Source: Chthoniobacterales bacterium (GTDB lineage: Bacteria; Verrucomicrobiota; Verrucomicrobiia; Chthoniobacterales; UBA6821). From it: a stretch of DNA of 64,000 bases. Under the pieces are notes generated by a model, which saw only the letters and a program-made list of their open reading frames with translations, was not told where the DNA came from and searched no databases. Location: the NCBI GenBank assembly GCA_019747895.1, contig JAIEQF010000021.1, positions 1,207 to 65,206 of the forward strand, in the 5' to 3' direction. This document shows positions 2,194 through 59,374 of this stretch, piece after piece (within the stretch, counting starts at the first letter, position 1; the number at the start of each line of letters is the position of its first letter). A program made the translations under genes and the position numbers.

Positions 2194-2356
2194 TTACAGG
2201 TTACAGGTTGCAGGTTACAGGAAAAAATTCGAAGATTGAGTTGAAAAGTTGAAGTGTTTTAAAAACAAAGTGCATGTTGTTTAAAAAAAACGATTAATTT
2301 TTTTCTGTTGATGGCTTTTCCCCTACACCCTGTAACCTGCACCCTGTAACCTGTAG
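2194..2356. repeat. split-arm inverted repeat, CCTGTAA/CCTGCAA heptamer family (both arms)
   Basis: Left arm 2194-2221 ttacaggttacaggttgcaggttacagg; right arm 2328-2356 ccctgtaacctgcaccctgtaacctgtag; about 105-nt AT-rich spacer. The left arm ends 10 nt from the PfkB start. The right arm is inside the GT2 3' end. Confidence 0.9.
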
Positions 2357-3097
2357 CTCATACCCCCGACTGTAGCGGACAAACGTTGAGAACCCGGTTG
2401 CTACAGCAATCCAAAGCCCTGGGAAGCCATCGAGAAATCCGCAGCGAAAAAAATAGCCGCGGAAAAATCTCCAGATCGAACGCGTGAGCGTTGCCCAAAG
2501 AGACCATGATTTTTTTTGATCGAGTTGCTTTTTTAAAAACTCATCAGCAAAAGGATTGATTTTATCGATGTAGCGATTCATCGAAGGGAAAGAGTAATGC
2601 AGCAACTCTCCTGAGAGCGTTGTGACTTTTCCTGAAACTTCTACAAATTCATGAATCGGTTCTTTCCAACGTCCTTTGTCACGGCGAAAAAGCCTCAACT
2701 GAAAATCAGGATACCAATCTCCATGCCTGATCCATCGCCCTAGAAACCAGGTTTTACGCGGAAAACGGGCCCCATCGAGATACTGATCTTTACCTTGCTC
2801 AAAAAAAGCGATGATCTCTTTTTTTAATTCAGGAGAAACTTCTTCATCGGCATCGAGCGCAAGAACCCAGGGTTGAGAGCAAAGATCGAGAGCAACATTT
2901 TTTTGATCACGATAGCCAAGCCACGACTGCTCTTGAACAATCGCTCCAAAATTCTTGGCAATTGCCATTGTTCCATCTGTTGATCCAGAATCGACCACGA
3001 CAATTTCATGCGCTAAATCGGCAATACTCTGCAAGCAGCGCGCTAAGTTGCGCTCTTCATTGTAGGTGATGATCGCGATGGAAAGGGGCAAGGTCAT
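2294..3097 (-). CDS. glycosyltransferase family 2 (WaaE/KdtX-like LPS core glycosyltransferase)
   Basis: 267-aa ORF. SIAIITYNEERNLARCLQSI...VVVDSGSTDGT and LDADE (DxD) motifs. The last ~20 codons (ELQVTGCRLQGVGE...) are encoded by a heptamer repeat arm. Confidence 0.8.
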   Translation of the reverse strand: MTLPLSIAIITYNEERNLARCLQSIADLAHEIVVVDSGSTDGTMAIAKNFGAIVQEQSWLGYRDQKNVALDLCSQPWVLALDADEEVSPELKKEIIAFFEQGKDQYLDGARFPRKTWFLGRWIRHGDWYPDFQLRLFRRDKGRWKEPIHEFVEVSGKVTTLSGELLHYSFPSMNRYIDKINPFADEFLKKQLDQKKSWSLWATLTRSIWRFFRGYFFRCGFLDGFPGLWIAVATGFSTFVRYSRGYELQVTGCRLQGVGEKPSTEKN

Positions 3098-3104
3098 AAA
3101 AAAA

Positions 3105-3288
3105 AATTAACCACAAAGAACACAAGACAAAGAAGAGAATTAACCGCAAAGAACGCAAAGAACGCAAAGAAAAAATTGCAGTGATTTACTTTTCCAAATT
3201 CACAAAGTTGGGTTATCACGCAAATAAAGACAAAATGCCACTAGCGAAGCTTCATCTTTCAACTTTTTTGCGTTCTTTGCGGTTAATT
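3105..3288. repeat. split-arm inverted repeat, (A/G)CAAAGAAC 9-10-mer family, long form
   Basis: Left arm 3105-3171 aattaaccacaaagaacacaag...aattaaccgcaaagaacgcaaagaacgcaaagaa; right arm 3268-3288 ttgcgttctttgcggttaatt. The spacer is similar, in reverse orientation, to the spacer of 59195-59374. Confidence 0.85.
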
Positions 3289-3302
3289 TTTCCCCTTTCT
3301 TT

Positions 3303-56903: not shown

Positions 56904-57782
56904 ATGAAGCCAAAGAAGCTGATTCAATTTGATTGGGCGATCAAGACGCTTTTGCGTCACAAGGCGAACTTCCCGATTTTAGAAGGCTTTCTATCGGAGC
57001 TGTTGCACACCGATGTGAAAATCGAGTCGCTCTTGGAAAGCGAGTCGAATAAAAACCATGCTAAAGATAAATCAAATCGTGTTGATGTTTTGGCTCAACT
57101 CAAGAGTGGTGAAAAAGTCATCATCGAAGTGCAGTGCGCTCACCAATGGGATTTTTTTTCGCGGATGTTGTATGGTGTTTCCAAAGTAGTTGCTGAGCAC
57201 CTCAAGGAAGGAGAAGAATATGGCACTATGCCACGTGTGATCTCCGTCAACATCGTTTATTTCGACTTAGGCCATGGAGAAGATTACATCTATCATGGAA
57301 CGACCGATTTTAAAGGCGTTCACAAGCAAGATATTTTGCAGCTGAGCCCCAAAGAAAAAGAACATTATCCTGCGCTCATTGATCATCTTTCTAAAGTATT
57401 TCCCGAATATTATGTTTTAAAAGTGAGTGAATTTGATTTGAAAATTAAAGACACACTTGATGAATGGATCTATGCGCTGCAACAGTCAGAGGTCCGCCCT
57501 GAATTTAAGGCCCAAGGAATTCAAAAGGCTGCTGAACAACTCACTGTTCTTCAGCTTTCAGACACCGAACGTACCGCATACGAGCATTATGTTGGCGATA
57601 ACAGAGACTCGAAAAGCATTTGGCGCACTTACTACAGCGATGGGAAGAGAGAAGGAAAAGCTGAAGGAAAAGCTGAAATGATCATAAACTTTCATCGCTT
57701 AGGATTGCCTCTGGAACAAATTGCCACAGCCGCTCAACTTTCGCCGGAACAGATTGAGGAGATTTTAAAATCAGAAATATAA
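56904..57782 (+). CDS. Rpn/YhgA-like PD-(D/E)XK nuclease family putative transposase, copy 3
   Basis: MKPKKLIQFDWAIKTLLRHKANFPILEGFLSELLHTDVKIESL... Differs from copy 2 by, among other things, a 12-bp duplication (GKAEGKAE). Confidence 0.7.
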   Translation: MKPKKLIQFDWAIKTLLRHKANFPILEGFLSELLHTDVKIESLLESESNKNHAKDKSNRVDVLAQLKSGEKVIIEVQCAHQWDFFSRMLYGVSKVVAEHLKEGEEYGTMPRVISVNIVYFDLGHGEDYIYHGTTDFKGVHKQDILQLSPKEKEHYPALIDHLSKVFPEYYVLKVSEFDLKIKDTLDEWIYALQQSEVRPEFKAQGIQKAAEQLTVLQLSDTERTAYEHYVGDNRDSKSIWRTYYSDGKREGKAEGKAEMIINFHRLGLPLEQIATAAQLSPEQIEEILKSEI

Positions 57783-57874
57783 AAAGATCTTCGGGATTTC
57801 CGCATTCTGGCATCAAAAATTTTTCCTTAACTTTTTTGTTTTGCTTTCTCTTCTTTAAAGCTACTTTCCTTTCT

Positions 57875-59188
57875 ATGTCTGCAGTACCTCCTTCTACGCG
57901 CAAGGTCGGCTTAATCACTTGCGTTTTCCTTGTATTAGCCATTGTTGTTGGTAATGGAATTTATACCAATCTTGGATTGCAGCTTCTTTCGGTTTCAAGC
58001 AACTTTACTATTTTAGCGCTCTGGCTGATCGGCGGCATCTGTGCTCTCTGCGGCGCGCTCTCGTATGCAGAGCTCTCCTCGCTCATGCCTCATTCCGGAG
58101 GAGAGTACTATTACCTTTCGCGCATTTATCATCCTGCTTTGGGAACCACAGGCGGAATCATGACGCAATATGGCGGCATGATCGCTCCAACGGCCTTGGC
58201 AAGTATGGCCTTTGCAAAATATGTCTCTGGAATTTTTCCTTCATGTCCTCCAACGCTCATTGCGATTGCTTTGGTAACTGTGATCACCGGAACTCACTTG
58301 ATCAATTTGGGATTCAGCGCTGGATTTCAAGATACGATCACCGCGCTGAAATTCCTTCTCGTTGGCACCATTATTTTTCTCGGCTTTCGCTACGCGACGC
58401 AATCACCAACCATTTTTCTTCCGACCTCCTCCTCCCTCAAGGAGCTCTTTCTGCCAAGCTCCGGAGTGACGCTTCTTTTTTGCTACTACGCTTATGCCGG
58501 ATGGAGTTCGGCAACCTACATCGCTGACGATGTCAGTTCTTCTCGCAAGACAGTTGGGCGTTCTCTCATCATCGGAACACTCTTGGCAACGTTGATCTAT
58601 CTTTCGATGAATGCTGTTTTTTTAATGTCCGCACCCAGTGAAGAATTGCGCGGCGTGATTGATGTAGGACATGTGGTGGCAACTCATTTGCTAGGAGCCC
58701 ATGGCGGCAATGTCATGGCAGTCTTGATTGCTCTTGGTCTCATGGCTGGCGTAAGCGGCATGATCTGGGTTGGCCCCCGCATCACGCAGATGATGGGAAA
58801 AGATTTGCCAGCGCTGACCTTCTTTGATCATGTCTCCTCGACTAATGTCCCAGTGCGCGCGATGCTCTTGCAATATGTTTTGGTGGTCCTCTTGCTCTTG
58901 ACCTCTTCTTTTAAAATCGTCTTGGTGAGCTCGCAGTTCACGCTGATTTGTTGTCAGATCATGACGGTCTTTGGCGTTTCGGTACTTCGGAAAAAACAGG
59001 CCGCGGCTCCCGATGCATCACAAGAAATTTTCCGTTGTCCGCTTTATCCCTTGCCATCAATTATTTTTATTGGCGTCAGCCTGCTTGCACTCGGCTACAC
59101 GATCAGCACCAACCCGCTTGAATCCGGCATTGGCATCGGTGTGATTCTTTTTGGACTGGCGTTGTATCCGCTTTTTCGGCGGGGGTAA
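57875..59188 (+). CDS. APC-superfamily amino acid permease, paralogue 2
   Basis: Start chosen at ATG 57875 (MSAVPPSTRKVGLITCVFLVLAIVVGNGIYTNLGLQLL), which aligns with the N-terminus of 43761-45131. CGALSYAELSSLMPHSGGEYYYLSRIYHP. Confidence 0.8.
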   Translation: MSAVPPSTRKVGLITCVFLVLAIVVGNGIYTNLGLQLLSVSSNFTILALWLIGGICALCGALSYAELSSLMPHSGGEYYYLSRIYHPALGTTGGIMTQYGGMIAPTALASMAFAKYVSGIFPSCPPTLIAIALVTVITGTHLINLGFSAGFQDTITALKFLLVGTIIFLGFRYATQSPTIFLPTSSSLKELFLPSSGVTLLFCYYAYAGWSSATYIADDVSSSRKTVGRSLIIGTLLATLIYLSMNAVFLMSAPSEELRGVIDVGHVVATHLLGAHGGNVMAVLIALGLMAGVSGMIWVGPRITQMMGKDLPALTFFDHVSSTNVPVRAMLLQYVLVVLLLLTSSFKIVLVSSQFTLICCQIMTVFGVSVLRKKQAAAPDASQEIFRCPLYPLPSIIFIGVSLLALGYTISTNPLESGIGIGVILFGLALYPLFRRG

Positions 59189-59194
59189 GAAAAA

Positions 59195-59374
59195 AATTAA
59201 TCGCAAAGAACGCAAAAAAAGAAGTGCAAAAAAGTTGGAAGATGAAACTTCGTTAGTTGATATTTTGTGCTCAACTCCATGAAGTTGGGGGAGCAAATTG
59301 CTGCCAAAATTTTTTTGCGCTCTTTGCGTTCTTTGCGGTTAATTGTTTTTTCTTGTGTTCTTTGCGGCTATTCT
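59195..59374. repeat. split-arm inverted repeat, (A/G)CAAAGAAC family, long form
   Basis: aattaatcgcaaagaacgcaaa (59195-59216) ... ttgcgctctttgcgttctttgcggttaatt (59315-59345) and ttgtgttctttgcggctattc (59353-59374). The spacer is related to that of 3105-3288 in inverted orientation (aaaaaagttggaagatgaaacttcgttag vs aaaaaagttgaaagatgaagcttcgctag). Confidence 0.8.

Follow-up and report, generated by a model that had tools for sequence, protein, structure and literature searches.

Long terminal inverted repeats that consist of short tandem sub-repeats around a variable middle characterize the Foldback transposons of Drosophila. Rickettsia palindromic elements, conserved sequences of ~100-150 bp, are mobile, tolerated inside protein genes, and translated in frame. 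Heptameric repeats of cyanobacteria, termed STRR, were reportedly described by Mazel and co-workers in 1990. Pairs of tandem arrays were catalogued in Geobacter metallireducens by Aklujkar et al. (2009), who listed 24 pairs of tandem 8-mers, 21 of 8/9-mers, and 8 of 7-mers, and proposed that these opposite-strand pairs at variable distance are sites of IHF/HU regulators (PMC2700814). Rehm et al. (2015) reported 70-75 convergent GGGAATC array pairs in Xanthomonas (PMC4692102), and MacGregor (2015) found TAACTGA arrays in one orientation before starts without a Shine-Dalgarno (SD) sequence in Beggiatoaceae, Cyanobacteria, and Bacteroidetes (PMC4679880). According to a preprint, heptamer arrays affect recF and recO expression in Nostoc (10.1101/2022.06.06.494920). 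Here, we analyzed a 64-kb stretch of DNA, referred to as the window, from a metagenome-assembled genome of Chthoniobacterales (Verrucomicrobiota), at whose gene boundaries a purine-rich tandem array, an AT-rich core, and a complementary pyrimidine-rich array form recurrent modules. We favor with moderate confidence that these are small non-coding mobile modules of the foldback type, similar to MITEs (miniature inverted-repeat transposable elements), with tandem 7-9-nt arrays as terminal inverted repeats (TIRs) and an AT-rich core of usually 80-115 nt. The paired-array kind was thus already known but unexplained; the arm-core-arm unit as a copyable module and the rewriting of gene ends are described in none of these four studies and are newly described here.

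The window contains housekeeping genes, including a bat/MoxR operon, purK, lpxL-waaF, type II/IV secretion ATPase genes, gyrB, accBC, and pdhABC. No tRNA genes were found in it, and no Rfam family matched it at gathering thresholds; at E values up to 0.1, only sub-threshold likeness to eukaryotic microRNA precursor hairpins was obtained. The PdhB protein had its nearest counterparts among representative genomes in Verrucomicrobiota (amino acid identity up to 81%). Syntenic loci from relatives (in the L081-L090 range, ~150 kb of the lineage in all) were compared with the window, to which they show nucleotide identities of ~95% (L083), ~94% (L085), ~86-90% (L081, L082, L086), and ~75-80% (L084, L087); L089 and L090 are two further close relatives with 94% and 89% identical E2 proteins, respectively.

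Arrays were called with Tandem Repeats Finder, and 30 dinucleotide-preserving shuffles served as the expectation. The window contains 20 period-7 arrays (1.5 ± 1.4 expected, shuffle maximum 4) and 13 period-9 arrays (1.4 ± 1.2 expected). With tandem units of 5-11 nt above chance and mostly in non-coding DNA, the arrays qualify as long simple-sequence repeats. The initial annotation of this DNA had listed at least 24 sites with their unit families, and arrays were recovered at every one of these coordinates by Tandem Repeats Finder and the intergenic listings. It had also placed them at gene boundaries: intergenic DNA and positions ≤45 nt from the end of an open reading frame (ORF) together make up 18% of the window and hold 30 of the 38 arrays with periods of 7-10, and five of the eight remaining, apparently deep arrays are located in ORF ends over-extended by the mechanical ORF caller. 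Two arrays in one intergenic region are always reverse complements from one unit family, as had been proposed; a strict automatic detector returned seven inverted and no direct pairs, and the arms determined by repeat search are 24-49 nt long with 73-100% complementarity. Folding of arm, spacer, and arm, a check suggested at the outset, yielded an arm-arm helix in 15/15 modules, with z-scores of -4.1 to -12.3 versus shuffles. The modules are no CRISPR array, because their units are contiguous in tandem and paired arrays are inverted, never direct.

Fifteen complete arm-core-arm modules and ten solo arms were inventoried in the window (Table 1). The modules span 86-221 bp without a conserved ORF, and their unit families coexist (CCTGTAA, CCTACAG/CCTATAG, CCTTCAG, TTACTCG, CTCATTA, GGAAGGGAT, and CGCAAAGAA/CACAAAGAA). 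The spacers are AT-rich as initially stated, but their length, then given as 16-120 nt, ranges from 1 to 115 nt, with 11 of 15 at 79-115 nt; all sizeable spacers have a GC content of 17-38% versus ~47% for the window. In 15/15 modules, the order is purine-rich arm, core, and pyrimidine-rich arm, a polarity that is unaltered by reverse complementing. On the mRNA, the purine-rich arm overlaps the upstream stop codon or lies within ~14 nt of it, and the pyrimidine-rich arm is found 0-13 nt before the start codon. The latter spacing, earlier given as 3-15 nt for at least ten starts, applies to PfkB, lpxL, pdhB, E2, accC, secG, DUF58, FMN reductase, nucleotidyltransferase (MNT), and permease genes; leaders in this lineage are pyrimidine-rich and lack an SD sequence. 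Each solo heptamer array (8/8) precedes a gene on whose mRNA it is pyrimidine-rich, and solo nonamer arrays are purine-rich (2/2), which corrects the pyrimidine-rich assignment initially made for the nonamer solos at 10881 and 12455.

The inner arm ends run into A/G-rich, C-poor sequence, and no fixed motif was found beside the arms in the first 45 nt of the core. A scan of the window for consensus sigma-70 promoters gave background level, and terminator-like sites were not enriched (32 versus 23.9 ± 6.3 expected), with none reported by the scan at modules. Given the 79-115-nt spacers of 11/15 modules and this missing terminator match, intrinsic (Rho-independent) terminators were rejected as their identity; the sole terminator-like case is the nonamer hairpin at 43615 with its T-rich tail. 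Because the two halves of a core are no more complementary than shuffled halves, the modules are not decayed long palindromes either. Circularization of mRNA by arms pairing across a gene was discarded, as the two arms on either side of a gene come from different unit families, and so was a rule that units place stops in all frames on one arm only, which is true for some unit families and not for others.

The architecture, initially not recognized as REP, ERIC, BOX, Correia, or RPE, has been catalogued before. As in the window, G. metallireducens has intergenic pairs of 3-5 tandem 7-, 8-, or 9-nt copies (e.g. proB-proA) and several unit classes per genome, with the sister species lacking them; the units are different, and homology between cores, turnover, and a link to starts and stops are unreported (PMC2700814). 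The present set adds comparative evidence for inter-locus copying and gene-end remodeling. The convergent GGGAATC pairs of Xanthomonas are a further precedent: 89-93% of the arrays are intergenic, near the upstream ORF and with the G-rich array first, i.e. with the same purine-to-pyrimidine polarity, and their length varies by species while the type, 'single or inverted pair', is preserved (PMC4692102). They comprise one unit family and were studied as G-quadruplex formers, which most units of the window cannot be, and neither a mobile module nor a role at gene boundaries was described (PMC4692102). The heptamers before SD-less starts share a position a few nucleotides upstream of the start, indels in 7-nt steps between strains, and occasional overlap with ORF ends, but 169 direct sets stand against one inverted set, one unit dominates per genome, and an arm-core-arm arrangement is undescribed (PMC4679880). 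The modules share with MITEs and REPINs a small size, the lack of coding capacity, inverted repeats at their ends, a dispersed intergenic location, and a presence that varies between strains, whereas no target-site duplication, autonomous partner, or transposase was found for them. The closest structural analogue is the Foldback element. For insertion in frame, it is the Rickettsia palindromic element, which lacks tandem-unit arms; here, most copies lie at gene ends and only those of the waaF linker are internal.

Core sequences were compared between junctions after masking of the arrays. The core of the GGCTGAA module at the purK/lpxL junction of L083 and L088 matches that at the pdhB/E2 junction of L085 with 97.6% identity over 41 nt in inverted orientation (alignment A1); in this family, the outer units have a mirrored order. 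The GGAAGGGAT module at 18480-18700 of the window matches the one at the pdhB/E2 junction of L086 (85.6% over 104 nt, E 4e-26, alignment A3), and the GCCTATA module at 8476-8640 matches the junction between FMN reductase and pdhA in L085 and L089, where L086 has half a copy (alignment A2). Copies at non-orthologous junctions in relatives were thus obtained for three families with heptamer or nonamer arms. Full modules of the TTACTCG family were found at the T2SSE/MshEN junction of L083 and at pdhA/pdhB of L086, and a solo array at secG in the window. At least four copies of the nonamer family occur within the window itself: over 106 nt, identity between the hairpins at 26036 and 41510 amounts to 94%, and the modules at 3100 and 59188 match in their arms and part of the core in inverted orientation. 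The short-loop nonamer hairpins (26036, 41510, 43615), initially described as locus-specific, are instead copies of one dispersed element.

Comparison of filled and empty orthologous sites, as the initial annotation had recommended, revealed modules that were gained, lost, and swapped between ~95% identical genomes. A gain was identified in L083, where a 240-nt module with new arms and a 110-nt core separates two secretion ATPase genes; in the window, L081, and L084, these genes share an ATGA overlap. Replacements affect the purK/lpxL and waaF-linker modules, both of which are exchanged for different modules in L083; at purK/lpxL, L083 and L088 carry the GGCTGAA module instead of that of the window, and the arms are decayed in L081. 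Four states of the pdhB/E2 junction were distinguished among five genomes. The window, L089, and L090 have a CCTGTAA array without a partner there, L085 has the GGCTGAA module, L086 the GGAAGGGAT module plus a residual array, and L087 nothing. At pdhA/pdhB (39185), the array is absent in L089, a full TTACTCG module is present in L086, and a solo TTACTCG arm remains in L090, from which solo arms look like deletion remnants. Module 18480 is mostly deleted in L083, the MoxR/DUF58 site (13385) is empty in L084 (41-nt gap), and L086 has a 5-nt gap at the permease-start site (43615). The most distant genome (L084, L087) has mostly short, array-free junctions.

Superimposed on this turnover, the arms change by whole units. 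One-unit differences between the window and L083 or L085 were observed at four junctions (BatD/BatB, BatB/BatA, DUF58/MoxR, and accB/accC), a whole-unit copy-number change between strains as expected of simple-sequence repeats. The BatA/BatB nonamer array (10870) has one unit more in L083, the accB/accC module (29933) one unit more in L085 and an empty site in L087, and the solo array at the MoxR start (14560) differs in copy number and unit order in L081 and L083. Concerted evolution is seen in the array at the FMN-reductase start, which retains its position and four units while the unit varies by single-base steps (GGTTACA in the window, GGCTACA in L086, GGCTATA in L085 and L089, and a mixture in L090). 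The earlier statement that the unit changes from locus to locus needs revision, since the change reflects partly such homogenization of one in-place array and partly different element families. The core at the SH3/BatD junction (module 6554) is 98-100% identical between the window and L081 with flanks at 80-88%, which points to selection on the core or recent exchange.

Genes of this lineage are separated by very small gaps, so that modules come to lie in or on gene ends. The new module of L083 alters both neighbors: in the upstream ATPase, it replaces the last residues and the stop codon, and in the downstream ATPase the first residues. The N-terminus of PurK is encoded by the resident arm, reading MRASKNKQPDNLQPATCNLT in the window, where the left arm of the purK/lpxL module is translated, and MLSSSFRLQPSAFSLS in L083; in the distant relative, this stretch comprises no more than six residues. 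An arm is also read through by the GT2 ORF. In relatives, lpxL-waaF is a single ORF of 647-720 amino acids (aa), which in some of them includes an in-frame translated heptamer array (GYRLQVAGYR), and four relatives carry different arrays, or a single unit, in the waaF linker. In the window (16094-18392), it is split in the linker between the GT9 domains into ORFs of 551 and 191 aa, with the stop of the former in the purine-rich arm of module 17724 and the ATG of the latter in its core. The initial claim that the arms sit 'exactly on gene boundaries' thus needs qualification: several are found inside called ORF ends (2322-2355, 6692-6721, 15907-15941, 17735-17751, 17843-17873, and 35253-35277), and the position appears exact largely because surviving modules often supply stops, starts, or terminal residues themselves.

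Judged by comparative sequence data, the modules show copying between loci, presence/absence and replacement polymorphism, slippage, homogenization, solo remnants, and remodeling of gene ends. Their size is below the approximate MITE limit of 500 bp, they are non-coding, the arms correspond to TIRs, and dispersed copies share internal sequence in the small sample formed by the window and ~150 kb from relatives. Recurrence at non-orthologous junctions together with gain, loss, and swapping backs the initially listed possibility of a MITE superfamily with tandem-repeat TIRs. Either an enzyme whose gene lies elsewhere would do the copying, or copies would arise through recombination and template switching at the hairpin.

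Several observations weigh against mobility of this kind. Paralogues of heptamer-armed module cores were not found within the 64-kb window, the paralogy rests on few pairs in the related sequence, and when metagenomes were scanned with 23 nt from the GGCTGAA module core, the orthologous purK/lpxL locus was the only match. No target-site duplication was seen at the L083 gain or at other filled-versus-empty pairs, whose junctions are blurred because adjacent sequence was replaced. No transposase linked to modules was found in the ~150 kb of lineage examined; the PD-(D/E)XK transposase-family genes of the window and a Y1 transposase gene of L086 are flanked by other repeats. Exact stop-to-start replacement of a module is unusual for transposition, and allelic homologous recombination between strains is possible. 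Some cores are better conserved than the flanking genes, which fits selection or recent exchange rather than a purely selfish element. Finally, arm lengths are unmatched and complementarity was lost at purK/lpxL in L081 and at FMN reductase/pdhA in L086, so pairing is not strictly maintained.

Similar arrangements were found outside the lineage. Tandem 7-9-mers in inverted pairs were present at PdhB loci of unrelated genomes (80 loci compared), namely in Flavobacterium, Gemmatimonadales, Acidobacteriota, and other Verrucomicrobiota. Units close to the nonamer of the window are CGCAGAGAA with TTAACC ends in L040 and CGCAAAGA in L033; the polarity is not universal, as the pyrimidine-rich arm comes first in L040 (Acidobacteriota). 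In viral contigs, (CCTGTAA)3 was counted in 20 stretches, (GGCTGAA)3 in 82, and the nonamer end in seven, versus 6 and 12 for permuted control heptamers, all counts being uncorrected for contig relatedness. Complete purine-core-pyrimidine modules occur in viral contigs of 29% to 55% GC and in the further contigs L138 and L183. Viral GGCTGAA arrays ≤60 nt from starts are mostly in pyrimidine sense (47 versus 15), and their adjacent inverted pairs run from purine to pyrimidine (4 versus 0). The viral contig L112 (59% GC) carries at 10374-10460 a nonamer array (TAACCGCAAAGAACGCAAAGAACACAGAGA) followed by (GGCTGAA)4 just before an ATG, i.e. two unit families of the window side by side, in purine-rich sense before the start. 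A literature search with array sequences returned only papers on fission-yeast telomeres, whose unit GGTTACA is a coincidence.

The polarity bears on a second explanation, in which the modules are primarily regulatory RNA elements of the host whose long-range stem, formed by the stop-proximal purine-rich and start-proximal pyrimidine-rich arms, punctuates operons, mobility being secondary; the routes conceived are RNase III-type processing, translational coupling, in which a ribosome that terminates would open the stem and release the following start, or a terminator with the promoter of the next gene in its loop. We consider this possible, though rather unlikely as the primary explanation. 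Orientation is tied to genes and not to the DNA strand, the viral contigs show the same bias, and complete modules are present in compact phage genomes; the close spacing of arms to starts and stops (0-13 nt from starts; 0-14 nt from or overlapping stops), 24-35-bp stems with strong z-scores, cores better conserved than flanking coding DNA, and the lack of enrichment of canonical intrinsic terminators in the window all fit it. At the junction before E2, the closer relatives, L001 included, always have some pyrimidine-rich array. Yet ~40% of the sites (10/25) are solo arms without a partner, divergent gene pairs carry both arms even though no sense transcript would contain both, and modules also occur inside coding sequence (waaF linker). 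The arms decay without compensation in L081 and L086, their lengths are unmatched, and a distant relative has the same genes with short array-free junctions.

An RNA-level role of mobile modules is nevertheless plausible from their arrangement. In a read-through transcript, the purine-rich arm after the stop codon would pair with the pyrimidine-rich arm before the next start, and the stem formed could hide the SD-less leader or serve as a substrate for a double-strand-specific RNase; transcripts starting within the core would contain only the pyrimidine-rich leader and stay open. Such a gene-linked constraint would explain both the fixed purine-to-pyrimidine polarity and the retention of solo pyrimidine-rich arms. 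In L083, the divergent purK and lpxL genes are separated only by a module, which makes promoter activity in or next to the core likely, and from this gene pair we infer a promoter in the core. A far-reaching and unlikely extension would be a gene-boundary cassette shared by bacteria of several phyla and phages, with a promoter in the core, arms that form a stem in read-through transcripts only, and the pyrimidine-rich arm acting as an SD-independent leader. If so, slippage-driven arm length would tune expression, the stem would terminate, cleave, or silence read-through transcripts, and cassette exchange would rewire or split genes.

In-place replication slippage, with inverted partners arising by template switching (quasipalindrome correction) and neither transfer nor function, accounts for part of the data. 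It would produce the one-unit differences between ~95% identical genomes and the spread of a unit variant through a whole array at a fixed position; the states of the waaF linker in four relatives are consistent with growth from a proto-repeat, and among the long simple-sequence repeats of many bacteria, heptamers are the most frequent kind (Mrazek 2007, cited in PMC4679880). As the complete explanation, it is very doubtful: it leaves unexplained why non-repetitive cores are identical at unrelated junctions, how arms and a 110-nt core appeared in a single step in L083, and why cores have a constant size and low GC content; cores also lack residual palindromy. The core homologies largely refute slippage as the only process.

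Still less probable are paired binding sites of a DNA-bending or global regulator protein, or iteron-like sites. Opposite-strand pairs at variable distance were read as IHF/HU-type sites in G. metallireducens (PMC2700814), A-tracts flank the inner arm ends, and GGCTGAA, CCTGTAA, and CGCAAAGAA recur in distant genomes above two permuted control heptamers; in the viral contigs L097 and L100, many dispersed single GGTTACA/TGTAACC sites in both orientations surround a CCTGTAA array and resemble iterons or the operator clusters of a phage control region. At least seven unit sequences at equivalent positions in one genome and the drift of units by point mutation at a fixed site speak against protein recognition, and the bias in orientation depends on which way the neighboring gene runs, which argues for RNA rather than duplex DNA. 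An artefact of metagenome binning or repeat collapse can be practically discounted, since modules with small unit differences are found in independent NCBI, ENA, Logan, and JGI assemblies, even though the contigs with close E2 homologues, from which most close relatives are known, are short (1.5-4.4 kb) and end near arrays that probably break assemblies.

A REP/REPIN system (repetitive extragenic palindromes, REP) with a RAYT partner (REP-associated tyrosine transposase) was rejected for the modules, because their arms consist of tandem units of many sequences and the Y1 transposase gene of L086 is flanked by GGGGTCAGGCTAATATTATTGAC repeats, not arrays; a genome with REPINs has a single conserved palindrome of 20-40 nt together with its cognate RAYT, to which another repeat of the lineage, with a GGGGTCAG core, fits better. 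Separate near-perfect palindromes were found in the window at 42091-42174, 61971-62061, and 63010-63091, with arms of 30-34 nt (CATAGGGGTCAGTCCTGCCTTTTGTAACATTT and variants) and loops of 16-27 nt, and members of the same family at 11250-11310 and 12395-12430 of L086. The window lacks a homologue of the 353-aa Y1 transposase of L086 (PF01797, RAYT-like), on whose two sides GGGGTCAGGCTAATATTATTGAC repeats containing the GGGGTCAG core of the palindromes lie in inverted orientation; from these sequences, the palindromes look like a REP/REPIN-RAYT system apart from the tandem-repeat modules. At the place corresponding to the Y1 gene, the window has two PD-(D/E)XK transposase-family (PF12784) genes (53818-54714 and 56874-57782), another member being located at 18578-19519 of L083. 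Their upstream segments of ~90-150 nt are 86-97% identical (near 53690-53810, 54732-54860, and 56780-56870); (AAAAGGGGTC)n arrays precede the gene at 53818, and the segment at 54732-54860 contains another array with a repeat copy.

Table 1. Modules and solo arrays in the window
Feature	Position	Strand	Arms or unit; core or loop	Context and remarks
Full module	2186-2358		Arms (TTACAGG)n / (CCTGTAA)n, 27 nt, 96% complementary; 100-nt AT-rich core	GT2 gene end to PfkB start; right arm within GT2 ORF 3' end; z -7.4
Full nonamer-family module	3100-3295		Arms AATTAACCGCAAAGAA(CGCAAAGAA)n and complement; 92-nt core	
Full module	6554-6721		Arms (TAATGAG)n / (CTCATTA)n; 100-nt core	BatD stop (inside arm) to SH3-domain gene start
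Full module	8490-8637		Arms (GGCTATA/GGCTGTA)n / (CCTACAG/CCTATAG)n; 87-nt core ending GCCGAAGGCCTTACTTTGA	
Solo nonamer array	10870-10912	-	(CACAAAGAA)3 on mRNA	Fills 52-nt BatA/BatB junction
Solo nonamer array	12455-12490	-		Adjoins DUF4381 start codon
Full nonamer-family module	13385-13570		GCCACAAAAGAACACAAAGAGCAC arms; 79-nt core	MoxR stop to DUF58 start; followed by second pyrimidine-rich array; z -9.1
Solo array	14560-14600	-	(CTTCAAC)n on mRNA	1 nt before MoxR start
Full module	15905-16092		Arms (CAGGTTA)n / (TAACCTG)n; 115-nt core	Between divergent purK and lpxL; z -10.0
Full module	17724-17885		Arms (CTGTAGG)n / (CCTACAG)n; 91-nt core	Linker between GT9 (waaF) domains
Full module	18480-18700		Arms ATGGAAGCGACGGAAGGGAT and complement, outer CACAG/CTGTG ends; 105-nt core, 17% GC	
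Short-loop module	22255-22345		Arms (GTTGAAGC/GTTGAAAC)n and complement; 25-nt spacer	
Nonamer-family hairpin	26036-26149		32-nt loop	Between convergent gyrB and FAD-dependent oxidoreductase gene; z -8.6
Solo array	28064-28100	-	(CCTGTAA)n on mRNA	4 nt before nucleotidyltransferase gene start
Solo array	29340-29385	-	(TTACTCG)n on mRNA	~10 nt before probable secG start
Full module	29933-30104		Arms (GGCTAAG/GGCTGAG)n / (CCTTCAG)n; 110-nt core	accB to accC; left arm begins on accB stop codon, right arm ends 6 nt before accC ATG
Full module	35135-35280		Arms (GGCTGAA)4 / (CCCTCAG)n; 87-nt core	Radical-SAM stop (inside arm) to thiE-like start
Solo array	37438-37475	-	(CCTGTAA)4 on mRNA	6 nt before FMN-reductase start
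Solo array	39185-39225	+	(CCTGTAA)3	12 nt before pdhB start
Solo array	40205-40242	+	(CCTGYAA)3-4	5 nt before E2 start
Nonamer-family hairpin	41510-41660		31-nt loop	After E2 stop; then second pyrimidine-rich nonamer array ending at next gene start; z -10.7
Solo array	43040-43080	+	(CCTGTAA)4	Directly after stop codon, 42 nt before next start
Nonamer-family hairpin	43615-43760		1-nt loop, then T-rich tract and short CTGTAACCTGCAACC array	CTGTAACCTGCAACC array 8 nt before permease start; z -12.3
Full nonamer-family module	59188-59380		93-nt core	After permease stop; z -8.3

Other repeats and insertions were noted along the window. An ~80-nt GC-rich insert (18395-18500) with small GAAG-loop hairpins (CTGCCGAAGGCAG, CCCCGAAGGGG) breaks the left end of the GGAAGGGAT module, and similar CCCGCGAACGCGGG hairpins are found at the E2/VTT junctions of L089 and L090. 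The LpxL domain contains a GC-rich, hairpin-rich in-frame insertion of 79 codons (16842-17078) that is absent from L081 and L083; L083 has a related 99-nt in-frame insertion elsewhere in the same gene (10925-11022), flanked by a 9-nt direct repeat (ACACCGCAA). These insertions may represent a second kind of mobile element that is tolerated within genes. Between the FMN-reductase array and pdhA, the segment at 37500-38032 comprises ~430 nt with small ORFs (108 aa at 37706-38032) that is absent from L085, L086, L089, and L090; it may be an inserted toxin-antitoxin-like pair beside the PIN-domain gene at 36221-36637. The BatB-like gene (8639-10867) contains coding tandem repeats at 9148-9341 with units of 12, 18, and 36 nt (4.4 perfect copies of the 18-nt unit), a low-complexity stretch of a VWA/TPR protein. 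In L083, genes for a CesT-like chaperone and an IpgD-like protein (weak) are inserted relative to the window (15276-17701); they hint at type III secretion and a host-associated lifestyle, which could explain repeat proliferation.

Earlier reports of paired arrays explained them only as 'possible regulator sites' or 'possible G-quadruplexes'. The close genomes of this lineage allow the comparison of the same junction between strains, in which the module is copyable and its arms evolve as microsatellites. The modules rewrite gene ends by supplying new stops, starts, and N- or C-terminal residues, and in one case by gene fission. They probably break short-read assemblies and cause mis-called starts and stops; if general, their behavior would explain the short contigs and mis-placed gene ends of such genomes. 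It would also offer a common explanation for scattered reports of unexplained repeats, and the gene-linked polarity makes a function at the RNA level directly testable. In poorly studied phyla and their phages, such modules would then allow gene expression and protein ends to change quickly.

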